From an uncultured Alphaproteobacteria bacterium (lineage in GTDB: Bacteria > Pseudomonadota > Alphaproteobacteria > CAAHEQ01 > UBA3637): a DNA stretch of 33,651 bases. Shown piece after piece: positions 2,310 to 26,393 of the stretch. The stretch is from the NCBI GenBank assembly GCA_947629595.1, contig CANREI010000003.1, positions 1 to 33,651 of the forward strand. The letters run 5' to 3'. The position numbers and the translations under genes are program-made. Numbering within the stretch: the stretch's first letter is position 1; the number at the start of each line of letters is the position of its first letter. The notes under the pieces are model-generated. The model was given only the letters and a program-made list of their open reading frames with translations, did no database searches and was not told where the DNA came from.

Positions 2310-2459
2310 ATGTTTAATAAATCCGAAAAAAAATATTATTTGGCTAAAATTTTAGCCGTTTTGGTCGTGGCCGCATTCGTTGCTTTGGCGTTTGTGAACC
2401 CCAAACCCGCCGTTCAGCATATTGAAAAACCTTATACAAATATAACGCATGCCCAATAA
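2310..2459 (+). CDS. Small single-pass membrane protein (49 aa), not in ORF track
   Basis: MFNKSEKKYYLAKILAVLVVAAFVALAFVNPKPAVQHIEKPYTNITHAQ; GAGGG RBS upstream; one TM helix; overlaps the start of the next gene. Confidence 0.75.
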   Translation: MFNKSEKKYYLAKILAVLVVAAFVALAFVNPKPAVQHIEKPYTNITHAQ

Positions 2460-3969
2460 TTTTTTTCAATTTTTAATGCTGATTATCGGCTTTTTCAGCC
2501 TGCTTCCCGCATGGGCGCAAGATTTTAAATCGGAAGTGGCCGTTGAATCGCTGCCCGAGTTATCGGCCAACGTTTTAGGCACGATTCCAACAAAAAATCC
2601 GCGCTTGTGGTCCGGCACACCGGCAGATAAGCTGTTGGAAACACTTGAAAAAACAGGAAAAGCAAATTTATCGCCCGCTGCACGCGCGCTGGTGACTTAT
2701 TTATTGCAATTAGACATAACGGGCGCCGGTTTTAACGATTCTCAAAATATTTTGCAATCGGATCAGTTTTTCGTTGCCCGATTAAAAACACTCGAACGCC
2801 AAGGTGAATGGGATATTGTTTTAAACCTGATTGAAAAAGTGCCCGAAACGGAAATAACAAACGAAATAAAGCAAATAAAAGCAACGGTTTTGTTAATGAA
2901 AGGGCTTGTGAAAGAAGCGTGTCAATTACAGGAAGAATTAGCCGAAACAAAAAATGAAAACGGAGAAGCCGTTTCAAATATTGAGGCCGATAAAATGCTG
3001 ATCAGCTGTTTTTTGGCAAAAGAGGAAAAAGACAAGGCCGTTTTGGCGTATGATGTGTTTCAAGACGCGCACCCCGATGCCGATTCGGATTTTACGGCAC
3101 TGGCCGATATGACGTTACGGGAACTACCGGTCGAATTGCCCGAAAATCTTGTTTTATCACCGAGTAATGTTTATTTGTATGCGTCGGTTAAAAATCCGAC
3201 ATTGAATATTGCCCTGCAAACACGGGAAGTGAAAAAAATATTGTCGGATTTACCCGCAACCGATATTATTTTACGCATTCGTCTCGGGGAACAAATCGGA
3301 TTGGATTTGACTGAATTACAACGACTTTATCGCTTGCCGCTCCTCAATTTACCGACGGATAATGCCGTTGCCCAAAGAGTGCAAACTTATCAACAAATTC
3401 AAGCCGAAACCGATGCATCGAAAAAAGCAGCCCTTATTTCAAAATGGCTGAACCTTATTCAAAAAGACAACTTGTTTGTGCCGCTGGCGCCCCTGATTGC
3501 CGAAACATTTCACCAACTGGAAGCCGATGAAAAATATATTGACTTGGCGTTATATGCCGTTCAAGCGTTTGCCTTAACAAAAAATCCGGCAGCGGCAGAA
3601 CCGTGGTTTGAGTTATTGGAAGATAACGATCTGTATCAGCAACATTACTTAACGGCCTCTTTATTACTGCAAACCCTCGGCAGCGGCCCGCGGGATTTTC
3701 AAGAACGGCTCGATTATTATTGCTCCTATGCCAAACCGATTGACTGCGCGCGTTTAAAAAGATTTCTGCCCGAAGAAAACGACGATGAAATTTCTTCTTC
3801 CGAAAAAGAAAAAACGAACCTCACAACACAACTCGGCGAATCGCTTTTGAATGCCGTTTTAAATATTGCCGACGGAAAAGACGTCAAAGACTCTTACACT
3901 TTTATTCAAAAAGCGGCGCGACCCGTCCAAGGTCGTGCCTTATTAAGAGAGGGGATTATTTCACAATGA
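2449..3969 (+). CDS. Secreted alpha-helical hypothetical protein of the type found upstream of xerD in Alphaproteobacteria
   Basis: 506-aa ORF, signal peptide (LLPAWA/QD), RLWSGT motif, ATGA overlap with xerD. Confidence 0.75.
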   Translation: MPNNFFQFLMLIIGFFSLLPAWAQDFKSEVAVESLPELSANVLGTIPTKNPRLWSGTPADKLLETLEKTGKANLSPAARALVTYLLQLDITGAGFNDSQNILQSDQFFVARLKTLERQGEWDIVLNLIEKVPETEITNEIKQIKATVLLMKGLVKEACQLQEELAETKNENGEAVSNIEADKMLISCFLAKEEKDKAVLAYDVFQDAHPDADSDFTALADMTLRELPVELPENLVLSPSNVYLYASVKNPTLNIALQTREVKKILSDLPATDIILRIRLGEQIGLDLTELQRLYRLPLLNLPTDNAVAQRVQTYQQIQAETDASKKAALISKWLNLIQKDNLFVPLAPLIAETFHQLEADEKYIDLALYAVQAFALTKNPAAAEPWFELLEDNDLYQQHYLTASLLLQTLGSGPRDFQERLDYYCSYAKPIDCARLKRFLPEENDDEISSSEKEKTNLTTQLGESLLNAVLNIADGKDVKDSYTFIQKAARPVQGRALLREGIISQ

Positions 3970-4871
3970 AGCAGGCGCAAATCGAGGCTTTTTTGGAAAT
4001 GATGATTGCCGAACGCGGCGCATCACCCCGCACCATTGCTTCTTATCGGCATGATTTGGAAGATTTAAACGCGTTTTTATCGGCGCGTCACATTCAGGCA
4101 ACAAAAGCCGAACAGATTGATTTACAAACATATATGCGCTCTTTAACCAAGCAAGGATTAAGCCCGAAAACGTGTACACGACGGCTGTCGGCCATTCACG
4201 AATTTTATCGGTTTTTATTTTCGGAAAATATCATTAAAAAAAATCCCGCCGATTATTTGGAGGCACCGAAAACAGGGAAATCTCTGCCGAAATATTTAAC
4301 GGAACGGGAAGTTGCAACACTTATTCAAACGGCTGCACAAAAAAACACGCGTATGCGGGCTTTATTGGAAATTTTATATGCCTCCGGTATGCGCGTGAGT
4401 GAATTGGTTTCGCTGTCCGTGCAAGCCGTCACGAAAGATAATCGTACCGTTTCGGTTGTCGGAAAAGGCAATAAGGAGCGCCTTGTCCCTTTAAACGAAG
4501 CAGCGCGGTTGGCGCTCAATGATTGGTTAACGGAACGGGAGCTGACTTTAAAAAAAGGGCGCTATTCCAAATGGCTGTTTCCGTCAAGCGGCGCATCGGG
4601 CCATTTAACCCGAGACGGTTTTTTTAAAGCCTTAAAAGAAATTGCTTTAACCGCCGGTATTATGCCCGATAAAGTTTCGCCGCATGTTTTTCGACATTCG
4701 TTCGCCAGTCATTTAATTGCGCATAACGCCGATTTGCGCACCGTTCAGCAAATGCTCGGGCATGCCAACATTGCCACAACGGAAATTTATACGCACATTT
4801 TGCAGGACCGATTAAAAAACACGGTTGAAAAATCACATCCTTTGGCGTATAGTAGAAAAAAGGATTTATAA
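3966..4871 (+). CDS. xerD: Site-specific tyrosine recombinase XerD
   Basis: AERGASPRTIASY, LYASGMRVSEL, GKGNKERLVP, SPHVFRHSFASHL, DLRTVQQMLGH, TTEIYTH. Confidence 0.93.
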   Translation: MKQAQIEAFLEMMIAERGASPRTIASYRHDLEDLNAFLSARHIQATKAEQIDLQTYMRSLTKQGLSPKTCTRRLSAIHEFYRFLFSENIIKKNPADYLEAPKTGKSLPKYLTEREVATLIQTAAQKNTRMRALLEILYASGMRVSELVSLSVQAVTKDNRTVSVVGKGNKERLVPLNEAARLALNDWLTERELTLKKGRYSKWLFPSSGASGHLTRDGFFKALKEIALTAGIMPDKVSPHVFRHSFASHLIAHNADLRTVQQMLGHANIATTEIYTHILQDRLKNTVEKSHPLAYSRKKDL

Positions 4872-7800
4872 ATGAAAATTTTGAACAGATACATTTTAAA
4901 ACAACTGATTGTTGCTTTCTTGTTGATTTTACTGGGATTAACAACGCTTGTTTGGTTAACTCAATCCCTGCGTATGATTGATATGATTGTAACCCAAGGC
5001 GTTTCGGTGCGTATTTTTATTCAAATGACTTTATTGGTTTTGCCGAATTTTTTACAAATTCTGTCACCGCTGACGTTGTTTGCCGTTATTTTATTTATTT
5101 TCTCCCGCATGCAGAGCGATAAAGAAATTACGGTTATGCAGGCCATCGGTATGTCCAACGGGCAAATTACCCGACCGGTTCTTTTACTGGCCCTGCTCTT
5201 AACGGTTTTCGGTTATATCATGACGCTGGATTTAATTCCGGCTTCCTATGCCAAACTGAATAAACTGCGTTGGCAGGTTCGGAACGATTTATCGCATCTT
5301 CTTTTACAGGAGGGGCAATTTAATTCGTTCAAAAACGGCTTAACGCTTTACATTCGCGAACGCTTATCCGACGGAACGGTTCGCGGCGTGATGGCGTATG
5401 ATGCAAAAGATCCGGAAAAAATTGCCGTGTTGGTTGCCGAAAACGGTTTGATTTTTCAGGAAGATGACGGTTTTCAACTGATTTTTCATAAAGGAACGCG
5501 TCAAGAATATAATCCGAGCACACAGAATTTTTCCATTTTAAAATTTGATAAATATACCATGTTTTTTAATGATAAAACCAATGCGGACAGTGCCAAAAAT
5601 TCAAGTGCTTCCGAATATTCTTTATCTTATTTGGCGGCGGCAACACCCGAAAGCGCACCGACACCTGCCATGTATCGCAAATATAAAGTAGAAATCATTA
5701 AACGATTGACAAAACCTTTATATAACTTAACGTTTGCCTTTTTGGCATTGTTCGGTGTGTTGGCTCCGTTTTATAATCGGCGCGGACAAATCGGACGCAT
5801 TTATTTCGTGATTTTTTGCACTTTATTGGTACAATCCGCCAACTTGGGATTGGAAAATCTGGCAACCAAAAATCTTGTTTTTTCACCTTTGTTGTTTATC
5901 AATATTTTTCTGCCCGTTATTTTGGTGTGGTTCTTTTCGAAACAACGTTCATTTAAATTTTTCCGTTTTAAAAAAGCCGTCGTTATTGCCGGATTAACCG
6001 GTGCCGTTCTCGGCAGTGCCGTGCCGGCAGAAGCACAAATTAAAATTGATCCGCAAATTAAAATTGAAAAAGATCAACCGATTGATTTTGAAGCCGATAC
6101 GTTTTCATACGATGAAAAAAACGATATCGTAACGGCTTCGGGCGATGTTATCGTTTCGCAAAACGGCACAACCGTTAAAACCGATACATTTTCTTTTTAT
6201 CGACAAAAAAACGTGGTGGTCATGCCGAATAAAGTGCGTATTTACACCAAAGACGGTACCGTAACCGATGCCGAAAACGTTTCTTTTTCCGCCGATATGA
6301 ATGATGTGTTGGGTGAGGCGGTTTTTATGCGTTTATACGAAGGATCGCTGTTAACGGCAAATCGGTTGAAACGCAAAAATGAAGGACAGGCCCTTTATTT
6401 AAAAAAAGCCGCCTACACCCCTTGCACAACCTGTGACGGCGATTCGCCTTTATGGCAAATTACCGCGCGCAATTTCAAACATGACGTTCCCGAAAAAGAA
6501 ATGATTTTTACGCACTCCTTTTTGGAGGTGAAAGACATTCCCGTTTTTTATGTGCCGTATTTAAATATTCCCGATTTTACGGTGAAACGGAAAACCGGCT
6601 TATTGGCGCCCAGCTTTTCACACGGCTCCGAAATGAAACAAGGGGTCAATCTGCCGTTTTTCGTGAATATTGCCGATAATCAAAACTTAATTTTACAACC
6701 AACCTTTGCCATCGATCATGATCCGTTGGGGGTGTTTGATTATTCGGCACTGTTTTCCCATGCCCAAGTGAATTTACAAGGCAGCGGCACACGCGATAAT
6801 GACGGCACAAATCAAGGGCATATTAAAGCCGATATGCGCTATGATTTGAACGATAATTGGCGATTCAGCGGACAATATTATCGCGCTTCAAGCGATACCT
6901 ATTTCCGGCGTTACCGTTTGCCGAATGTTAATACTTCACAGGCCTTTTTACGGTCATTCATCACCACCGAACGATTTGGCGAACAAAATTACTTTAACCT
7001 GACAGGGCTTTCTTTTCAAAGTCTTTATCGAAACGCCGATCCCAAAGCTTTGCCCGTATTGATTCCCATCTTGAATTATTCCTTGCAAACCGATCCGCTC
7101 ACGGATAACGGCTTATATGCTTTTTCGGATATTAACGGCGCCATGTATAACAACCGTTTACGGTTTAAGTCGGATCGCATTTCCTTAAATCAAGGTATTG
7201 CATTGCCCGTTGTAACAAACTGGGGTGCCAATGTTGATTTAAAAGCACAAGTGCGCGGCGATGCCTATCATGTCGATACGGGAAAAAACAGCTTTGATCA
7301 TCGCCCCAAAGACGATACGTATTCTGCCGGACGCCTGTTCCCGATTGCCTCGGCAAAAATCAGTTATCCGTTTATCAATGCCGGCACGCAAACAACGCAG
7401 GTTTTGGAGCCGATTATTATGTTAATTACGTCACCCGTCAGCGGCAATTCTTCCAAAATTCCCAACATTGACAGTACCGATGTTGATTTCGATGATACAA
7501 ATTTATTTACCGAGAACCGATTCGTCGGCTATGATCGCGTGGAAAACGGATCGCGCGCCAATTACGGCGTTCAGTGGTCTTTATATGACTATAAAAATCG
7601 CTCTTTATCCGCTTTATTCGGACAATCCTATCGTTTTTCGGGGGATGACGAATATGATCATATTGTCGGGTTAAAATCAAACTTTTCCGATTATGTCGGA
7701 CGCATGAAAATTGATTACAAAAATCTGTCTCTTGCCTATCGCTTTCGGTTAGATGAAAATACTTGGGAAGCCAAAAAGAATGAAATTTCCTTATCCGGCC

Positions 7801-8123
7801 GCGGCGGCCCCTTGCGTTTAGGGATGAGTTATACCCAACTGAAAGCGGTACGACTTGCCAATACTTTTTACAACGAAAGGGAAGAAATTTTGTTTTACGG
7901 CGCTTCAAAACTCACGCAAAAGTGGAATTTATCCGGCTTTTATCGATATAATTTGGCCAAAAACGATAAAGGACCCACGGAATACGGCGTTGTTTTACAA
8001 TATGATAACGATTGCACCGCTGTTGAGTTTGATTTAAATCGTTCTTTCACAAAAGATCGGGATTACGAAGGGGACACCTCCTTTGTCGTGAAATTTATTT
8101 TAAAAACATTGGGACAAATGTAA
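4872..8123 (+). CDS. Fused LPS export permease LptF (YjgP/Q family, aa ~1-355) and LPS assembly outer-membrane barrel LptD (aa ~389-1083)
   Basis: N-half: ILNRYILKQL, WLTQSLR, DKEITVMQAIGMS, EGQFN, six TM helices. C-half: FEADTFSYD, YTPCTTC, PLWQI, KRKTGLLAPS, NRFVGYDRVENG, YDNDC. No stop codon between the halves. Confidence 0.9.
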   Translation: MKILNRYILKQLIVAFLLILLGLTTLVWLTQSLRMIDMIVTQGVSVRIFIQMTLLVLPNFLQILSPLTLFAVILFIFSRMQSDKEITVMQAIGMSNGQITRPVLLLALLLTVFGYIMTLDLIPASYAKLNKLRWQVRNDLSHLLLQEGQFNSFKNGLTLYIRERLSDGTVRGVMAYDAKDPEKIAVLVAENGLIFQEDDGFQLIFHKGTRQEYNPSTQNFSILKFDKYTMFFNDKTNADSAKNSSASEYSLSYLAAATPESAPTPAMYRKYKVEIIKRLTKPLYNLTFAFLALFGVLAPFYNRRGQIGRIYFVIFCTLLVQSANLGLENLATKNLVFSPLLFINIFLPVILVWFFSKQRSFKFFRFKKAVVIAGLTGAVLGSAVPAEAQIKIDPQIKIEKDQPIDFEADTFSYDEKNDIVTASGDVIVSQNGTTVKTDTFSFYRQKNVVVMPNKVRIYTKDGTVTDAENVSFSADMNDVLGEAVFMRLYEGSLLTANRLKRKNEGQALYLKKAAYTPCTTCDGDSPLWQITARNFKHDVPEKEMIFTHSFLEVKDIPVFYVPYLNIPDFTVKRKTGLLAPSFSHGSEMKQGVNLPFFVNIADNQNLILQPTFAIDHDPLGVFDYSALFSHAQVNLQGSGTRDNDGTNQGHIKADMRYDLNDNWRFSGQYYRASSDTYFRRYRLPNVNTSQAFLRSFITTERFGEQNYFNLTGLSFQSLYRNADPKALPVLIPILNYSLQTDPLTDNGLYAFSDINGAMYNNRLRFKSDRISLNQGIALPVVTNWGANVDLKAQVRGDAYHVDTGKNSFDHRPKDDTYSAGRLFPIASAKISYPFINAGTQTTQVLEPIIMLITSPVSGNSSKIPNIDSTDVDFDDTNLFTENRFVGYDRVENGSRANYGVQWSLYDYKNRSLSALFGQSYRFSGDDEYDHIVGLKSNFSDYVGRMKIDYKNLSLAYRFRLDENTWEAKKNEISLSGRGGPLRLGMSYTQLKAVRLANTFYNEREEILFYGASKLTQKWNLSGFYRYNLAKNDKGPTEYGVVLQYDNDCTAVEFDLNRSFTKDRDYEGDTSFVVKFILKTLGQM

Positions 8124-8133
8124 AGGGGAAAAA

Positions 8134-9312
8134 ATGTTAAAATACGGATTGATTTTATTGATGTTATTATTCGGTTACACGGCACAAGCCGGGCAAATTG
8201 TGGCAACGGTGAATGATGAACCGATTTCCAGCTTTGATGTGGAAGCGCGCGCCAAACTTATTGCCGTTCAACGAGCGGAATATTTAAACAACAAACGAAA
8301 AGCACAATACATTAAAGAGGCGCTTGATTTAATCATTGATGAAAAAGTGAAAAACATTGAAGCCAAAAAATACGGCTTTACGGTCAGTGACGCCGATGTT
8401 GCCCAAGCTATCGCGCATCTTGAAAAGCAAAACAATTTAAAACCGGGTGAAATGAAAACAATGCTGGCCAAAAACGGTGTGCCGATTGAAGTGTTGCAAA
8501 ATCAGCTGAAAACCGATTTGTTGTGGTTACAGGTCATTCAAAAACAATATGATGCCGGTATGACGGCACTGCCGGCCGAAATTGAAAAGAAAAAACAGGA
8601 ATTACGGGCAAAACTGAGAGAAGAAGAATTTTATGTGTTTGAAATTCTCATTTCCGGCAAAAAAGAGGCCGAACAATGCTATAAAGAATTGCGCAGCGGC
8701 ACGCCTTTCGATCAAGTTGTTGCCAAATATTCCAAAGCGCCCACAAAAGATGTCGGCGGTGAAGTCGGTTGGATAAAACCCGGCCATTATTCCAAAGAAA
8801 TCACAGCTGTTTTACGGCAATTAAACATTGGTGATTTATCGGCACCGTTAAAAACCAAAAACGGTTATTTAATTTTGTTACTGCAAGAGAAAAAAACACC
8901 CCTTTATTCCGATTCCGTCACGTTATGGGAATTGGCACAAATGGCTATGCCGACAAAAGAGGCCGTTCAATTTGAAAAAGAATTAACCGCTTTAAACGGA
9001 TGTGAGTCGTTTTTAAATTTTGCCGATACGCACGCCATTAAAGAATCCGTTAAATCCGGATTGGTGGCCCCCGATCAATTACCGAACGAGCTGAAAGAAA
9101 TTTTATCCGAAGAACCCGTTAAAACAGCCATCGGCCCCGTTCGCACGCAAGATGCCGACGTATTTTTTATGAAATGTGCCATCCGAACAAAAAAAGTTTT
9201 GCCGGATGATGATATCATTAAAGCACAAATTGAAAATGACAAAATGGAAGCACTTTCCGATAAATTGTTAAGAAACGCCAAACGGTTTGTCGTGATTGAA
9301 CGGAAAAAATAA
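8134..9312 (+). CDS. surA: SurA-like periplasmic chaperone / PPIase
   Basis: Signal peptide, IVATVNDEPISSFDV, parvulin F..V.AKYS...GGEVGW motif; canonical position after lptD. Confidence 0.88.
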   Translation: MLKYGLILLMLLFGYTAQAGQIVATVNDEPISSFDVEARAKLIAVQRAEYLNNKRKAQYIKEALDLIIDEKVKNIEAKKYGFTVSDADVAQAIAHLEKQNNLKPGEMKTMLAKNGVPIEVLQNQLKTDLLWLQVIQKQYDAGMTALPAEIEKKKQELRAKLREEEFYVFEILISGKKEAEQCYKELRSGTPFDQVVAKYSKAPTKDVGGEVGWIKPGHYSKEITAVLRQLNIGDLSAPLKTKNGYLILLLQEKKTPLYSDSVTLWELAQMAMPTKEAVQFEKELTALNGCESFLNFADTHAIKESVKSGLVAPDQLPNELKEILSEEPVKTAIGPVRTQDADVFFMKCAIRTKKVLPDDDIIKAQIENDKMEALSDKLLRNAKRFVVIERKK

Positions 9313-9325
9313 AAAAAGAGGGCTT

Positions 9326-10189
9326 ATGAAAACAAAAAAAATGAAAACAAGGCTGATTGACGGTAAAAAAGCCGCCGCCGAAATTGAAAAAACTTTAAAA
9401 CAGGAAATTGCCTCTTTTTCCAAAAAGCCCGGGTTGGCCGTTATTTTAGTCGGAGATAATCCCGCCAGTTTGATTTATGTGACGCATAAGAAAAAAACGG
9501 CCGAAAGAATCGGGATTGATGCTCAAATATACCACTTATCCCCCGTTATCACGCAAGATGCGTTAATTGCGTTTATTGAAGAGTTGAATCAAAACGCATC
9601 CGTTCACGGCATTATCGTTCAATTGCCTTTACCGGCACACATCAATGAAAACGCCGTATTGGAAGCCATTTGCCCCGAAAAAGATGTTGACGGTCTTCAC
9701 CCTCAAAATTTGGGACGCTTATTTATCGGGCAACCGACACTGATTCCCTGTACACCGCTGGCGTGTTTAACGCTCCTTAAAAGCGTTTGCAAAAATCTGA
9801 CGGGAAAAACGGCCGTTGTTGTGGGTCGTTCCCGCCTGGTCGGGAAACCGACGGCACAATTATTGCTGAATGAGCAATGTACGGTGATTCAGGCACATTC
9901 GAAAACAAAGAATTTGAAAAAAATATGTCGCACGGCCGATATTATTGTTTCGGCAACGGGACACGCCGGGTTAATTCGAAAATCTTATGTGAAAAAGGGA
10001 GCCGTTTTAATTGATGTGGGAATTATTCGTCTGGCTGATAAAAAAATAACGGGAGATATGGCTTTTGATGAAATGATCGGACATGCCAAAGCCATAACGC
10101 CGGTCCCGGGCGGTGTGGGTCCGATGACCGTTATTACTTTAATGCAAAATCTGGTGACAGCCTATTATCAAAACGAAAAAAATATCTGA
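9326..10189 (+). CDS. folD: Bifunctional methylenetetrahydrofolate dehydrogenase/cyclohydrolase
   Basis: IDGK, PGLAVILVGDNPAS, GIIVQLPLP, KDVDG, PCTP, VGRSRLVGKP, ITPVPGGVGPMT; start placed at ATG 9326 (9341 also possible). Confidence 0.96.
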   Translation: MKTKKMKTRLIDGKKAAAEIEKTLKQEIASFSKKPGLAVILVGDNPASLIYVTHKKKTAERIGIDAQIYHLSPVITQDALIAFIEELNQNASVHGIIVQLPLPAHINENAVLEAICPEKDVDGLHPQNLGRLFIGQPTLIPCTPLACLTLLKSVCKNLTGKTAVVVGRSRLVGKPTAQLLLNEQCTVIQAHSKTKNLKKICRTADIIVSATGHAGLIRKSYVKKGAVLIDVGIIRLADKKITGDMAFDEMIGHAKAITPVPGGVGPMTVITLMQNLVTAYYQNEKNI

Positions 10190-19787: not shown

Positions 19788-22700
19788 ATGCAAGGAAACA
19801 AAAGAACAAGCTCGTCAGAGCAATATACAAAAAAAAGCAACCGTACACTCTTATTCGGTGGCATCATTTTACTGCTCGTTTTTTTAACGATGCTTGTTTT
19901 AATGTCGAACGGCAAAAAAGTTCAGGAAGAAGAGCAAGAACCGGATTGGACAAATACTCAAATTGAAGAACGGGAACAAGAAATTCAAAACGGTGATCCC
20001 TTTTCCAGCGGTGATGCCCAATTAAAAGCGGAACCGGCTCAAATTGAAATGAATAATGTTGTGTTGGGCTCCAAAGTGGAAGCTATTTTAACCTTAACGG
20101 CGGAAAAAGCGCCCATCCAATTCAAAAAACTTGAATTTGCCCAACAACAGGCCGACGGGTTTACAACGGAAACAACCTGTTCGCCCGATACACCGATTGA
20201 AGTCGGCAAAAATTGTATTGTGAAAGTGTTATGGAATCCCATTGCCTTGCAACAACTTCAAAATAACCTGGTTATCACGTGGAAAGAAAATTCAACACGT
20301 GTGATTACCGAACAAACAACAACCGTTGTTGTTAAGGGGCAATCCACCGATTCAAAAGATTGCGTTATTTGCGAAGATATTCGGAAAAAAGAAGCCGTTG
20401 AACCGAAAATGGCCATGGGTTTAAACGGAGAGATGTATCCCATTAACGCGGACGACAACACCATTACCATTGACGGGAAAAAGGTTCACATGACCGAAAA
20501 CGGTGTCTTTATTGATGAAGAAGGGAACATTGTTGCCATTGCTCCGCCGGAATATATTGCTTTAAATATGCAAAATGAGCTGATGGGAACGGTTTCCGAC
20601 ACAAATGAAGTGATTGATGCCAACGGTGAAAACGTGGGAAAAACATTGGGTGATAAAACCATTGTCGATTCCAAATTAACCGTTTTAGGGGCGGCGGTTC
20701 CCGTTTTGTCCGTTATGGATACCCAAGGGAAAGTCATCGGTAAAATGACAAAAGAAGGAACGGTTGTTGACGGATCCGGCACCGTTATCGGCAAAGTTTG
20801 GGTTGATCATCAGGTGTTTTCCATCGACGGGCAATTTATGGGCTATATTCGCCCGTGGGGATTGGTTGCCGATTTTTCGGGAAAAATTCTCGGTGCCATT
20901 ATTCCGGACGGAACCGTTATTAACGGTAAAAACGAAACCATCGCCAATATTACGCCGAACGGTTTTGCCATCAATGCCCAAGGAGAGCTGATCGGTGCAA
21001 CCATTCCGGAAGGCGTGGCGGTCGGCCCGGGTTGTCAATCGTTGGGAAAAGTGTTGCAAAACGGTGATGTACGGGATTCTTACGAACAAGTCATCGGAAA
21101 AGCTTTAATTGACGGCACAATCGTCAACACGGCAAACGAAGAAATCGGTTCCGTTATTTCACAAGGGTTGGTTATTAACGAAAAAGGCGAAGTCATCGGT
21201 TATGTCAATTCCGAAGGAAAAGCCGTCAGCAATGCCGGAAAAGTCATCGGTTGTATCAATCCCGACGGCACCATTTCTGCCGGTAAAAAGTTTATCGGTG
21301 CCGTTTTAAGCAAAGGGCATGTCATCGGCTATTCCTGCGGAACAATCGGAACGGTTTTCCCTTCCGGTGAAGTGTTTAATAATGCCTTGCATCCGGTGGG
21401 ACGTGTTATGCCGGACGGACTTGTTAAAAGCGCCGAAAATAAAATTATCGGTATGGTGGTAACGCGGGCGGCTGCCGTGGCCGACGGTTGTCGGTTATTG
21501 GGACTTGTTTCCGTTAACGGGCAAGTGTTGGATTTGGCCAATCAGCCCGTCGGTTGTGTTACACCGGAAAAAACGGTTATCAATGATAAAGGCGACGTGT
21601 TGGGCAGTTTGGCACCGCGCGGCGTTGTTCATAAAGATGACGGAACAGTGCTGGGACGTATTCGTTTAGACGGTAAAGTTATGGATATGGAAGGCAAGGT
21701 TATCGGTTGTGTGAATGCGGACGGCTCCGTTACTTCTTTAACGGGTGAAATTCTGGCACAAGCCCCGACCAAAGACGGTATTATTATGGGAGATGACGGG
21801 AATCCGACCGGTTGGACAAGAGTCGGAAACGATATTATTGATCAATACGGGAATAAAATCGGAACGGTTAACAAAAATAATGCTATTGTCGATGCAACAG
21901 GCAAATATATCGGCTTTATTCCGCCCGACGGCTCTATTTTCTCTCCGGACGGATTGATTTTAGGTCGCTATTCCTCCAAAGTCGGATATGCGACCAATCA
22001 GGCAAACGAACGATTCGGAAAAGTGTTGTCGAATATGGTTGTTGTCAGTGCCGAAACGGGGGAAGTTGTCGGCGGTCTCATTAAAGATAAAACAACCTTT
22101 ATCAATCAAGCCGGACAAATTATCGGCACGTTAACGGCGGAAGGTATTTTAAAGAACACCGCCGGTGAAGTGGCGGGAGCGGTTCGCGGTGACGGAACGG
22201 TTATTGACAAAGACGGCAATATTATCGGCTGGCAAGTGCCGACGGGTGATGTGTTTTCAACAACCGGAAAATTTGTGGGAACGGCCATGGAATCGGGCGA
22301 AGTGTTTTCAACCGGTCACACAAAAATCGGAACAATTCTCGGAAACGGCATTGCTATTTCGACGGACGGAAAAATTTTAGGCGGTGTCTTGCCCAAAATG
22401 GCGCTGGCTATGGATGCCGACGGACTTGTCGGTTATTTGGCGCCCGACGGAAAAGTAACAAACACAACGGGTGCCGTTGTCGGACAAGGATCACCGTTCG
22501 GGCCGGTTATTTCTCCGGAAGGAGCGGTTATTGCCAAACTGGTCGGTTTAAATGTGTATGTTGATGCCCACAACAAAACCGTCGGCTGGGTATCGTTTGA
22601 GGGAACACTTAAAAACAAAGAAAATCGTGATATCGGTTTCGTAACCCCGAACAGAATGGCTTTCGATAAATCAAATCAATTGTTGGGATCCGAAATTCAA

Positions 22701-25700
22701 ACCGGTGTTGTGATTGATGAAACGGGACAAATGGTCTCGGTGATGGCCGTTAACAATAAAGTGTTGCAAAAAGACAGATTCTTGGGTGCCGGTTCCGCTT
22801 CACCTTATGTTTATGCCACCGATGACCGACCGATGGGACGTGTTTTACAACCCGGTGTCGGTATCGGAAACGACGGCTTGTTAATCGGTTGGACAAGAAC
22901 GGACGGTTCTATCGGAACACAAAGCGATTCGCTCGGAAACGTGTTGTTTGATAATCATATTATTAACGAAAAAGGAATGATTATCGGAACTTATGTGCCG
23001 TTCGGTGCCGTTGCTTTTTCCGATGAAGGGAAAACAATCGGCGTGATTGGCAAAAACGGGGAATTGGTAAACGATAACGATATTTCCAAAGGCAAAATCC
23101 ACGCGGCGGATTTAGTGGTTCAAAACGGTGAGATTTCAGGCAAACTCATGTGCGAACTGCCCTTTGTCAGCAATAATTTACTGGGCAAAATGTCGGGGCT
23201 TTCTCAATATACCGGCGAAGTGATCAGTCTGGCGAATAAAAAGAATATCGGAAACTTATTACCGAATGATTATGTCACAAGTATGAACGGACAAATCAGT
23301 GCCGGTTTAACGGCGCAGGGAACACCCGTCACAAACTCTTATACCTCATTGGGACAAGCTTATGTAAACGGTACAACGGCGTTAAAAAACAATCCGACGG
23401 GAGAAGTCAGCGGCATTAAAGTTATTTATGACAATACCGGCAAAGTTATCGGCAGCATTTTACCGGCGGCAACCTTTATCAGCAGAACGGGAAATTTCAT
23501 CGGTAAAACAGCTGCAAGTCGAATTGTGACAGACCGAAAAGGAAAGCAAGCGGCTTTGCAAATGAACTTCGGCTATGCCTTAACAAGTGATAATATTTGG
23601 GCGGGCGGTATTTTACCGAAAGGATTGGCCGTGAATGATGACGCCGAAGCCATCGGTACAATTATGCCGGACGGTATTGTTTTAGACAGTGCCGATTCGA
23701 TTGTCGGCCGCGTTTTGGCTGACAGTGCCGTCATTGAAGTAACCGATAAAGAACTCTTTAATACCATGCCTTATGCCGGTTCCGTTGTGGCACAGGGTAT
23801 GCCGTTCAGCTATCGGGGTAAAGTATTGGGTGTGACAACTTTAAACGGTGCTGTTAAAGACACATCGGGCAACAAGATTTTCAAAATATTGGATGACGGA
23901 ACAATTTTAGGCAAAGATGAACCGTTGGCCGGTGCCGTTTTACCGTTTACAACCGCGACCGGATATAAAGGCGAAGTGTTGGGAGCTTTGGCCGGCGACG
24001 GTAAAGTTTTATCACCGGACGGTGATTCGAAAGGAACAATTGCCGTGAATGAAACGGTCAAAGCATCCGAATTAAAAATTGTCGGTGCATTGGTTCCGTC
24101 ACGGTTAATCACCAACGATTGTAAAGTTGTGGGCGTAACCAGTTATAACGGACAGGTCGTTGATGCCAACGGAACGGTTGTCGGTTATGTTAAACCCGAT
24201 AAATGGGCCGTTAATGCGGCCGGGCAACAAATCGGCCGCGTGACCCGTTCCGGTTTGGTGATTGCCGAAAACGGCGATTATCTCGGCAGAACGCTGCCCG
24301 ATTCCACAGTGGTTGATTTAGCCGGCGTCAATATGGGTTGCGCAAAAAATGACGGTTCGGTTGTTGACAATAACGGAAATGTTATCGGAAATATTGTTGA
24401 ACGCGGTCTTGTTTTAGGTAAAGACGGAAAGCCTATCGGTCGAATTAAAGCGACCGGCCAAGTTGTGAATAAAGACGGCGAAGTCATCGGTAAAGTTTTA
24501 GCCAACGGTGATGTGGTTGATAACGAGGGCAATGTTATCGGACATAATGTTTCCCGTGATCAAGAATTGTTGTTTGACGAAAAAGGGAATATTAAAGGAA
24601 CTTTCGGAACGGACGGCACTTTCTATGATCCGAAAACAGGGAAAGCCGTTTTCAAAGTTGACGGCGAAACGGGCAATGTTTATGATCCGCAAGGAAATCT
24701 CATCGGAAAGTTGGATGAAAAAACCGGTAATATTACCACATTAGACGGAGAAACACTTGACAATCTCACCATGTTGGTTGATAAAGACGGGCATGTGTTC
24801 GGTATTGTTTCGGGTTGTGATGTTAAAAACAATCTGGGTGAAAAAATCGGCTCCATTTTGGCCAACGGAAACGTGGTGGATTTAAACGGTGATGTTTTTG
24901 CCAAAATTTTGGGTGACGGTACCATTTTGGATAAAGACGGAAACGAAATGGGGCGTGTTGCCGGAACTGATACCCGCTTAGATAAATGCGGCATTAAATC
25001 GGTTGATTCCATTGACAGTATTGATAAGAGCGATATCGGCGGTAGCGGTACCGAAATAGCGGGACGGAAAATCATTATCGGCAACCAAAAATATAACGTT
25101 TCCGAAAAAGGCTCCATCATCAGCGATGACGGAACAATTATCGGTTATATGGGTGAAGACGGCAAGCCTTATACGTTGGATAATCGGATATTAACGACCA
25201 GCGGCGATGTGGCAGGACGTTCGCGTCCGGATGTGAAGCAAACACAGAAGTTAACACCGGAACAAGTGCAACAAATTAAAGATTTATTGACACAAAAACG
25301 GGAAAGTATGCGTGCCGGCATTACCGAACGCGGCAAAATTACGGCAAACGGACAAATTCAAGCCATGAGTCGTCCCAAAAAAGACAAAAAATGGAAAGGC
25401 GTGGGCGCTATTGTTTCCTCATGGCCGGTTGATATGTCTCGCGTGATTTTAAAGGATAAAGCCATTCCTGCCGTTATTGTTCGATCGGTGGATTCGCGGT
25501 TCTCCGATGTGCCGGTTACGGCTATTGTGGAACGACATGTCTATGCCGAACAAGGACGCAACATTCTCATTCCGGCCGGCAGCCGTGTCATCGGTAAAAT
25601 GTCGCAAGGCGATAACGGCGGTAAAGTGGCCAAAATGGAAATCACTTGGGAGCGTCTTATTCGTCCCGACGGCGGTGCATTCAGCTTTGCGGCAACCTCG

Positions 25701-26393
25701 GGTGATGCGCAGGGACGCGGCGGCGTTGCGGCTTATTTGGATGATCAGCTGATTAACAAATACGGTAAGCCGGTTATGACGTCTGTCGTTACATCGGCCA
25801 TTTCATATATGATGGCTGCCAACGATGACTATCAGGCGGATTTAGAATCGGGAACAACATCGCAATCTTCCAAATCGCAAGCTGCGAATGATGCCCGTCA
25901 GAACTTTATTGATGCCATGGATCGAATCTTTAATAACTTAATTCAGGAAGCAACGGAAATTCCGAATGTTGTCTTTGTGCCGTCCGGCACACGGGTGACT
26001 ATTTTCTCCGATCAGGATTTGTGGCTCCGTTCGGAAGATGATGATGTGGAGGAATATCAAAACTCGGAAGATTTTGTTGATACAACACAAATGCAAAAAC
26101 CGCAAACGGGTTCGTGGGTTGATAAACGAAATCAAGAAAGTTCTTCCGAAGAAGATAGTAACAACACGTCTGCCAATAAAACGGAAAGTAATAACAGCGA
26201 GGCCGAACAACAAAAAGAAGAACTGCCGAATTATTACGCACCGAATAATGCTTATAAAGAAGGCAGTAATTCTTCTGCCATACCGTCCAATCCCGTTTAT
26301 GACGGCAGTACGCCAACGGAAAACGTACCGCTTAAAGACAGAACCGTTGCGCCGGTCTTGCCGAAAACAGGATCAACAGGTTCTTTATTTTGA
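19788..26393 (+). CDS. virB10: Giant VirB10/TrbI (2201 aa): TM anchor, Ig-like domain, ~30 x 51-aa repeats, TrbI domain, acidic tail
   Basis: C-terminal IPAVI..VDS..VTAIVERHVY..GRNILIPAGSRVIG..ITWERLIRPDG..DAQGRGG..VPSGTRVTIF..DL; between virB9 and virB11. Confidence 0.92.
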   Translation: MQGNKRTSSSEQYTKKSNRTLLFGGIILLLVFLTMLVLMSNGKKVQEEEQEPDWTNTQIEEREQEIQNGDPFSSGDAQLKAEPAQIEMNNVVLGSKVEAILTLTAEKAPIQFKKLEFAQQQADGFTTETTCSPDTPIEVGKNCIVKVLWNPIALQQLQNNLVITWKENSTRVITEQTTTVVVKGQSTDSKDCVICEDIRKKEAVEPKMAMGLNGEMYPINADDNTITIDGKKVHMTENGVFIDEEGNIVAIAPPEYIALNMQNELMGTVSDTNEVIDANGENVGKTLGDKTIVDSKLTVLGAAVPVLSVMDTQGKVIGKMTKEGTVVDGSGTVIGKVWVDHQVFSIDGQFMGYIRPWGLVADFSGKILGAIIPDGTVINGKNETIANITPNGFAINAQGELIGATIPEGVAVGPGCQSLGKVLQNGDVRDSYEQVIGKALIDGTIVNTANEEIGSVISQGLVINEKGEVIGYVNSEGKAVSNAGKVIGCINPDGTISAGKKFIGAVLSKGHVIGYSCGTIGTVFPSGEVFNNALHPVGRVMPDGLVKSAENKIIGMVVTRAAAVADGCRLLGLVSVNGQVLDLANQPVGCVTPEKTVINDKGDVLGSLAPRGVVHKDDGTVLGRIRLDGKVMDMEGKVIGCVNADGSVTSLTGEILAQAPTKDGIIMGDDGNPTGWTRVGNDIIDQYGNKIGTVNKNNAIVDATGKYIGFIPPDGSIFSPDGLILGRYSSKVGYATNQANERFGKVLSNMVVVSAETGEVVGGLIKDKTTFINQAGQIIGTLTAEGILKNTAGEVAGAVRGDGTVIDKDGNIIGWQVPTGDVFSTTGKFVGTAMESGEVFSTGHTKIGTILGNGIAISTDGKILGGVLPKMALAMDADGLVGYLAPDGKVTNTTGAVVGQGSPFGPVISPEGAVIAKLVGLNVYVDAHNKTVGWVSFEGTLKNKENRDIGFVTPNRMAFDKSNQLLGSEIQTGVVIDETGQMVSVMAVNNKVLQKDRFLGAGSASPYVYATDDRPMGRVLQPGVGIGNDGLLIGWTRTDGSIGTQSDSLGNVLFDNHIINEKGMIIGTYVPFGAVAFSDEGKTIGVIGKNGELVNDNDISKGKIHAADLVVQNGEISGKLMCELPFVSNNLLGKMSGLSQYTGEVISLANKKNIGNLLPNDYVTSMNGQISAGLTAQGTPVTNSYTSLGQAYVNGTTALKNNPTGEVSGIKVIYDNTGKVIGSILPAATFISRTGNFIGKTAASRIVTDRKGKQAALQMNFGYALTSDNIWAGGILPKGLAVNDDAEAIGTIMPDGIVLDSADSIVGRVLADSAVIEVTDKELFNTMPYAGSVVAQGMPFSYRGKVLGVTTLNGAVKDTSGNKIFKILDDGTILGKDEPLAGAVLPFTTATGYKGEVLGALAGDGKVLSPDGDSKGTIAVNETVKASELKIVGALVPSRLITNDCKVVGVTSYNGQVVDANGTVVGYVKPDKWAVNAAGQQIGRVTRSGLVIAENGDYLGRTLPDSTVVDLAGVNMGCAKNDGSVVDNNGNVIGNIVERGLVLGKDGKPIGRIKATGQVVNKDGEVIGKVLANGDVVDNEGNVIGHNVSRDQELLFDEKGNIKGTFGTDGTFYDPKTGKAVFKVDGETGNVYDPQGNLIGKLDEKTGNITTLDGETLDNLTMLVDKDGHVFGIVSGCDVKNNLGEKIGSILANGNVVDLNGDVFAKILGDGTILDKDGNEMGRVAGTDTRLDKCGIKSVDSIDSIDKSDIGGSGTEIAGRKIIIGNQKYNVSEKGSIISDDGTIIGYMGEDGKPYTLDNRILTTSGDVAGRSRPDVKQTQKLTPEQVQQIKDLLTQKRESMRAGITERGKITANGQIQAMSRPKKDKKWKGVGAIVSSWPVDMSRVILKDKAIPAVIVRSVDSRFSDVPVTAIVERHVYAEQGRNILIPAGSRVIGKMSQGDNGGKVAKMEITWERLIRPDGGAFSFAATSGDAQGRGGVAAYLDDQLINKYGKPVMTSVVTSAISYMMAANDDYQADLESGTTSQSSKSQAANDARQNFIDAMDRIFNNLIQEATEIPNVVFVPSGTRVTIFSDQDLWLRSEDDDVEEYQNSEDFVDTTQMQKPQTGSWVDKRNQESSSEEDSNNTSANKTESNNSEAEQQKEELPNYYAPNNAYKEGSNSSAIPSNPVYDGSTPTENVPLKDRTVAPVLPKTGSTGSLF
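20553..25200 (+). repeat. Protein-level tandem repeat, ~153-bp (51-aa) period built from three ~17-aa DGxVxDxxGxVIG units
   Basis: Equivalent positions at 20553, 20706, 20859, 21012, 21165, 21315, 21468, 21621, 21777, 21930, 22245, 22398; DNA copies are diverged. Confidence 0.85.

Follow-up and report, generated by a model that had tools for sequence, protein, structure and literature searches.

In Escherichia coli and other Proteobacteria, the canonical Lpt machine for lipopolysaccharide (LPS) transport contains LptF, a permease with a jellyroll, and LptD, which consists of a jellyroll and a barrel. The two proteins are encoded by separate genes, and LptD has its own start codon and an N-terminal signal peptide. 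In other Alphaproteobacteria with the unfused arrangements lptF-lptG-lptD or lptF-lptD, lptD is also located directly downstream of a gene of the lptF/lptG family and its product has the same N-terminus of n-, h- and c-regions, but a stop and a start codon part the genes there. Here we analysed a stretch of 33,651 nucleotides (nt) from an uncultured alphaproteobacterium (contig CANREI010000003.1; the whole stretch is called the window), in which the same LptF permease with its jellyroll and the same LptD jellyroll and barrel are encoded by one open reading frame (ORF), with the signal-peptide-like stretch in the interior of the protein. LptG, LptB and a SurA-like protein are found here, too. 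Judging from the sequence, it is likely that this polyprotein is cut by signal peptidase I into a free LptD and an LptF with a seventh helix.

The window belongs to a metagenome-assembled genome (MAG) of 1.34 Mb, which is divided into 151 contigs and 76.9% complete. A single uninterrupted frame at 4872..8123 on the plus strand encodes 1083 amino acids (aa) plus stop and holds both lptF and lptD. Its parts are listed below, with the evidence in brackets (TM, transmembrane helix).

4872..8123, plus strand: fused lptF-lptD ORF (ORF, Pfam, NCBIfam; frame kept in relatives)
4872..5936, plus strand: LptF permease domain, aa 1-355, with six TM helices and a periplasmic beta-jellyroll (PF03739, TIGR04407, AlphaFold2)
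5874..5930, plus strand: TM6 of LptF, aa 335-353 (hydropathy peak 2.37; AlphaFold2 helix 339-357)
5931..5975, plus strand: basic n-region, aa 354-368, with six K/R and no acidic residue (sequence, charge)
5976..6023, plus strand: hydrophobic h-region, aa 369-384, which is putatively helix seven in the membrane (hydropathy, AlphaFold2 helix 364-381)
6024..6035, plus strand: c-region P-A-E-A, aa 385-388; signal peptidase I is predicted to cut at its end, between nt 6035 and 6036 (alignment columns, AlphaFold2)
6036..8120, plus strand: predicted mature LptD, aa 389-1083, 695 aa (domains; aligns with unfused LptD from about the mature N-terminus)
6090..6326, plus strand: N-terminal beta-jellyroll of LptD, aa 407-485 (PF03968; AlphaFold2 strands from aa 405)
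6810..7925, plus strand: beta-barrel core of LptD, aa 647-1018 (PF04453, 3.5e-55)

On the fused protein, Pfam finds LptF_LptG at aa 6-355 (3.2e-70), LptD_N at aa 407-485 (PF03968, 3.7e-06) and LptD at aa 647-1018. By NCBIfam, the N-terminal part is LptF (TIGR04407, 235.1 bits with a cut-off of 230, versus 82.2 bits for the LptG model), and it has six TM helices with a periplasmic jellyroll between TM3 and TM4 according to AlphaFold2 and hydropathy. The C-terminal part matches the NCBIfam LptD models and is composed of an N-terminal jellyroll and a C-terminal barrel (Pfam), and AlphaFold2 predicts it as all-beta from aa 405. Both domains are ordinary members of their families, and the departure lies in the architecture. 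The LptD moiety has neither an N-terminal signal peptide nor a Met start of its own; the signal-peptide-like stretch (aa 354-388) lies inside the precursor, behind 353 residues of LptF, and not at its N-terminus. From established structures of LptF/G, we take the end of TM6 to be on the cytoplasmic side.

An earlier reading of this DNA, made from the letters alone (the sequence-only reading), had claimed that one ORF joins an LptF-type permease to the LptD barrel, and the ORF, Pfam and NCBIfam all agree; its choice of LptF over LptG is borne out by the NCBIfam scores. The positions that it gave are correct (K357 begins at nt 5940, the last nt of A388 is 6035, Q389 occupies 6036-6038 and the TTG/GTG codons lie at 5922-5927). 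It had also described n-, h- and c-regions without a Met, and none was found between TM6 and A-x-A.

The junction sequence (aa 353-395) is WFFSKQRSFKFFRFKKAVVIAGLTGAVLGSAVPAEAQIKIDPQ, in which the core of aa 369-384 is uncharged and is followed by P-A-E-A388 and Q389. In alignments it falls on the signal peptide at the N-terminus of unfused LptD (genome G027, and the N-termini of unfused relatives), which suggests that the junction is LptD's own signal peptide minus the start codon. The columns around the proposed site were counted across 117 full-length fused proteins aligned with MAFFT, independently of any rule for placing the site, as follows.

Position -1: A 114, S 2, gap 1
Position -3: A 70, V 22, S 16, T 8, G 1 (A/V/S/T in 116 of 117)
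Position -2: free, with Q, Y, M, F, S, W, L, N and others
Positions -4 to -6: P, S, T and G enriched
Position +1: Q, A, M, F, V and others, with Pro outside the eight commonest
Position +2: frequently Pro

The core columns are variable (L/V/I/A/F), and the mean column identity there is 0.26, versus 0.69 in LptF and 0.63 in the barrel. The site-placing rule located a site in 133 of 138 distinct sequences and in the remaining five placed none for technical reasons; in these 133 sequences, the net charge of the 18 aa before the core is +5 in median and the h- and c-regions together are 16 aa long in median. In the hydropathy profile the core forms a seventh peak (aa 369-387, 1.58), which is weaker than every LptF helix, the strongest ones being at 2.2-2.6. 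The junction columns match what is classically seen in signal peptidase I substrates, and this pattern was kept as the remaining linker drifted. The case for a signal peptide is built on the positional homology, the conservation of -1 and -3 amid divergence, the charge pattern and the short core together, not on the motif alone.

The structure was predicted by AlphaFold2 with 76 aligned relatives, and the mean predicted local distance difference test score (pLDDT) is 81 while the predicted template modelling score (pTM) is 0.55. The LptF and LptD domains are modelled well, and the low pTM may mean two bodies without a fixed mutual position. Helices are located at aa 2-42, 46-82, 96-142, 265-297, 306-333 and 339-357 (TM6), and strands at 150-232. 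The helix of aa 364-381 has a pLDDT of about 50-57, and aa 380-402, around the proposed site, form the least confident stretch of the protein (pLDDT <50), with the LptD strands starting at aa 405. The distance from the site to the anchor of the jellyroll is 17 residues in median (about 8-26).

Because the MAG is fragmented and incomplete, the join was checked for an artefact. Contigs from two other studies span the junction with 0 gaps (X6 record 11, 5525-6216; X7 record 19, 5543-7490), and no insertion or deletion is listed in any of the four public runs aligned. These public runs are contigs, not reads, and starts, ends and expression are not readable from them; the contig from an RNA library (X9 record 24, 5771-6016) is no proof of transcription.

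The order of the window consists of a single family, and 80 genomes from 16 genera were searched, including that of the window. An LptD match exists in 78 of them, in 69 of these 78 as a single frame of 1071-1101 aa. Three more (G074, G068 and G090) are fused at the junction and broken farther on by a frameshift, a contig end or a run of N, while the contig ends before the junction in five (G016, G060, G065, G066 and G076), which were left out of the informative count. The fused frame is thereby present in 72 of the 73 genomes with a readable junction, G084 being the only split one. The sequence-only reading had looked to read support over the junction and to the same fusion in related genomes: the former is answered by the contigs that bridge it without an indel and the latter by these 72 genomes. 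Genome sizes in the order are about 0.7-2.0 Mb.

A word-based search through 5.8 billion proteins yielded 157 clusters, each 595 aa or longer, with a match to the LptF part, and among the best 120 of these 157, both Pfam domains are found in 119. The public names of the fused proteins are 'LptF' or 'LptD' of uncultured Alphaproteobacteria MAGs, and the records point to animal-gut MAGs. Under either name the other protein looks missing, which is a warning to annotators. Moreover, the junction has at least 15 different lengths among 137 proteins, every one of them in frame. The 72 of 73 genomes, the 119 of 120 listed clusters, the in-frame length variation and the bridging contigs together indicate that the fusion is real and under selection.

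Outside the order, a class-wide search covered 401 genomes (with the unpublished G318 and G119 counted in the tally only), and the best 150 of 371 matches were listed. Among these, 14 frames of at least 1000 aa look like fusions and none is one; they lie in stretches rich in guanine and cytosine (GC content 0.64-0.69), LptF or LptG sits in another frame in 11 of the 14, and G245 and G384 have neither LptF nor LptG upstream. A look-alike of an LptG-LptD fusion in G251 was rejected because a run of N falls exactly at the expected LptG stop. In the GC-rich genome G124, from another family, lptD has an lptF-type gene directly upstream in a different frame, and no lptG separates the two (L073), so the lptF-lptD adjacency exists without fusion, too.

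A HMMER scan of 1.84 billion representatives returned the order's own clusters and three distant fused proteins with 28-30% identity to the window's protein, P0126 (1103 aa, with 30% identity over an end-to-end alignment), P0147 (1175 aa) and P0159 (partial, 761 aa). All of them have both Pfam domains and a junction that is basic, then hydrophobic, then small-x-small. P0159 is named as an Alphaproteobacteria MAG protein, and the three may come from other alphaproteobacterial lineages. In an LptD tree from a quick search, with one in three of the unfused matches of 680-800 aa and without P0147, the fused proteins of the order form one clade, and P0126 and P0159 branch immediately beyond it, in the company of three unfused proteins and with weak branch support. 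On this tree, the order's fusion, P0126 and P0159 may or may not share one origin.

The genome also encodes a signal peptidase I (TIGR02227, 164 bits, an ORF of 265 aa), next to what we take to be an RNase III-like ORF. For the remaining Lpt machine, lptG is a separate gene on C134, for which the best model is LptG (TIGR04408, 222.8 bits, below the cut-off of 240, versus 77.4 bits for LptF), and LptB is encoded on C98 (TIGR04406, 264.6 bits). Generally, lptC and lptA lie directly upstream of lptB, and in the canonical machine LptC and LptA are separate proteins. Here, a 625-aa ORF outside the window (G000:C98:1969-3840, minus strand; L052:541-2418) is located between a KdsD/KpsF-like gene and lptB. 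It contains an N-terminal hydrophobic helix, a weak LptC match at aa 21-192 (TIGR04409, 27.8 bits, below cut-off) and repeated LptA-like modules. As a query it matches 79 of the 80 genomes of the order, and among the matches listed a single frame of 334-714 aa holds both the LptC-like start and the last LptA-like module; the window's genus has the longest of these frames and the greatest variation in their length. By this comparison the 625-aa ORF would be an LptC-LptA fusion that arose naturally and whose bridge modules vary in number, and this parallel fusion suggests that the lineage condensed the whole machine. Pfam LptC gave no match and LptE (PF04390) was not found in this genome, and at a completeness of 76.9% these misses are no evidence of absence.

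We infer the order of insertion, the cleavage, its exact site and the fate of the seventh helix as follows. LptF would insert co-translationally into the inner membrane with six helices and a cytoplasmic C-terminus. The basic stretch (aa 354-368) would remain in the cytoplasm, and the hydrophobic stretch (aa 369-384) would insert N-in/C-out, launching the Sec export of the 695-aa LptD moiety. Signal peptidase I would cut after A-E-A388 and free mature LptD (from Q389) into the periplasm, and the freed LptD would be assembled into the outer membrane by SurA and the machinery for beta-barrel assembly (BAM). As the 'signal peptide' stays attached to LptF, LptF would be left with an extra, seventh helix at its C-terminus. 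The sequence-only reading had proposed the same cut after A-E-A388, and the proposal gains support from the homology, the conservation of -3 and -1, the lack of a conserved start and the signal peptidase I in the genome.

The fusion may have originated when adjacent or overlapping lptF and lptD genes were joined by a frame change of about one nucleotide, by which the ancestral LptD signal peptide lost its start. No stop follows LptF, so each ribosome that makes LptF continues into LptD. The outcome would be an obligatory 1:1 synthesis of LptF and LptD, and the gain would be a fixed ratio and one gene fewer in a small genome.

Several points weigh against cleavage of a polyprotein by signal peptidase I. 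The organisms are uncultured, and we know of no demonstration that signal peptidase I acts on a signal peptide after six helices in this family. The first site rule is partly circular, as it selects small residues. A loose small-x-small rule gives 109-117 matches of 117 at three other helix ends, and a strict rule gives 90 of 117 at the outer end of TM5, where it belongs to an otherwise invariant LptF motif that is surely not cut. Since the loose rule is uninformative and the strict rule also matches TM5, our argument uses the column counts made without any rule. At least one in-frame ATG exists in the junction in 43 of the 71 genomes with junction DNA, often directly after TM6, where extra internal initiation could take place. 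Finally, in G084 (L055:2400-2580, minus strand), the lptF stop TGA overlaps the lptD ATG (ATGA), with AAGGAG upstream. Separate genes in relatives had been named by the sequence-only reading as evidence against its proposal; they are found in this one genome of 73, possibly through a one-nucleotide MAG error, and all the rest are fused. The split state of G084 is about one nucleotide away from the fused state, and it may be the ancestral arrangement, a reversion or an indel error of the MAG.

The last two observations are also what speaks for a different source of LptD, namely independent internal initiation just upstream of the hydrophobic stretch, with the read-through fusion as a tolerated by-product, which we regard as improbable. 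G084 shows that a split form with the ATGA overlap and the motif AAGGAG, which resembles a Shine-Dalgarno (SD) sequence, can exist, and in much of the window's genus (g1) the ATG follows directly after TM6. This Met, before the basic stretch, is kept in many members of the genus and is probably the old LptD start. However, no start position is conserved in the junctions of the 71 genomes: 28 lack an ATG there, and ATG, GTG and TTG are all missing from the stretch where a start would be required in three, G011 (whose identity to the window is 92%), G052 and G059. An SD-like 4-mer precedes a candidate start in 13 of the 71 genomes, versus 15 of 21 crude gene calls in the window. The window itself offers TTG351 and GTG352, inside the end of TM6 and with no SD-like motif ahead. 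Besides, without a stop, LptF synthesis would still make the fusion, and this product would either be a waste or require that cleavage all the same. A precursor begun at an internal start would be processed at that very site, so this explanation leaves the polyprotein in place.

A further reading, to which we give little chance, keeps the chain joined permanently or until the barrel folds, so that LptB2FG would build its own outer-membrane exit in cis. The retained signal peptide would be a functional seventh helix of LptF, for example at the lateral gate, and would serve LptF after a cut as well. In E. coli, the LptC helix binds at the lateral gate. If this reading is true, the whole LPS bridge, with the LptC-LptA fusion, would consist of two polypeptide chains of fixed length.

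It is very improbable that the protein is never cleaved, in which case seven inner-membrane helices and the outer-membrane LptD barrel would form a covalent trans-envelope link. Cleavage is inferred, and the N-terminal edge of the LptD jellyroll faces the inner membrane in known Lpt bridges; given this orientation, such a tether is not topologically absurd. However, in a permanent anchor nothing would keep Ala at -1 near-invariant and the residue at -3 small while the core diverged, and the core is short and only weakly hydrophobic. The tether of about 8-26 residues, with its median of 17, is too short for a barrel in the other membrane. The LptC-LptA chain of the same genomes, whose jellyroll modules number from one to several (625 aa here), would imply a periplasm much wider than the tether plus one jellyroll. 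The covalent bridge had been the alternative of the sequence-only reading, and it is disfavoured by the -1/-3 conservation, the weak core and the short tether.

A cut elsewhere, or by another protease such as a periplasmic or intramembrane one, is similarly far from likely. The site is assigned by rule and alignment, and several relatives have two neighbouring small-x-small options; but the columns closely fit the specificity of signal peptidase I, and the cleavage region of the signal peptides in unfused LptD falls at the same place. That the fused frame stems from an error in assembly or sequencing, or is a pseudogene, as could be asked of a MAG with 151 contigs and a completeness of 76.9%, is excluded for practical purposes by the identical frame in 72 of 73 informative genomes and more than 100 database clusters, the gap-free contigs of two other studies, the strong scores of both domains and many invariant columns.

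The fused ORF is closely packed with its neighbours in the window, among which are the following.

3966..4871, plus strand: xerD, ending directly before the lptF start codon (TIGR02225, 330.2 bits, cut-off 329.6)
8134..9312, plus strand: surA-like gene for a periplasmic chaperone with its own N-terminal signal-peptide-like start (Pfam SurA_N and Rotamase; weak NCBIfam SurA match)

Upstream of xerD, a 506-aa ORF (2449-3969, plus strand) has a signal-peptide-like N-terminus and no Pfam family at E <= 0.01, and overlaps the xerD start by 4 nt. This overlap, together with xerD abutting the ATG of lptF, suggests one tightly packed operon. The surA-like gene starts 10 nt downstream of the fused ORF. 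It is followed by folD (9296-10189, plus strand), whose listed TTG start overlaps the end of surA by 17 nt; the FolD models match from about residue 16-20, and the true folD start is probably a later ATG. The longest ORF of the window in the crude ORF list has 2201 aa (19788-26393, plus strand).

No paper describing an LptF-LptD fusion was found in our literature search, with most subscription journals outside its reach. The name 'LptCA' was considered as an LptC-LptA fusion and rejected, as in the excerpts concerned it names an E. coli operon or complex. As far as we have found, there is no known case of an outer-membrane beta-barrel protein that is made as the C-terminal portion of a polytopic protein of the inner membrane. 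If the proposed processing is true, an essential outer-membrane protein would be exported co-translationally behind a membrane protein and released at an internal signal peptidase I site, in a 1:1 ratio with its partner. For LPS transport, this would be a natural experiment on the stoichiometry and spatial coupling of the two bridge ends, and how bacteria cleave internal signal peptides could be studied on this protein as a natural substrate.

In cytochrome b-c1 fusions of the FbcH type, the precursor is cut at an internal signal peptide. This type is the nearest bacterial precedent known to us, and the fused ORF resembles it in joining a polytopic subunit and an exported subunit of one machine via a signal-peptide-like linker. 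The excerpt of PMC4986455 describes a cytochrome b-c1 fusion in Bradyrhizobiaceae. In this alphaproteobacterial example, too, a polytopic inner-membrane protein is joined to an exported partner from its own complex. Both FbcH products stay at the inner membrane, whereas LptD has to traverse the periplasm and take its fold in the outer membrane. Another comparison is offered by the glycoprotein polyprotein of bunyaviruses, which is cut by host signal peptidase at an internal signal sequence (excerpt of PMC7926653). Such viral polyproteins share, within what that excerpt covers, a membrane-spanning upstream part, an internal signal peptide and a signal peptidase cut on the far side of the membrane, but these are viral proteins in the eukaryotic endoplasmic reticulum, whereas the LptF-LptD polyprotein belongs to a bacterial housekeeping machine.

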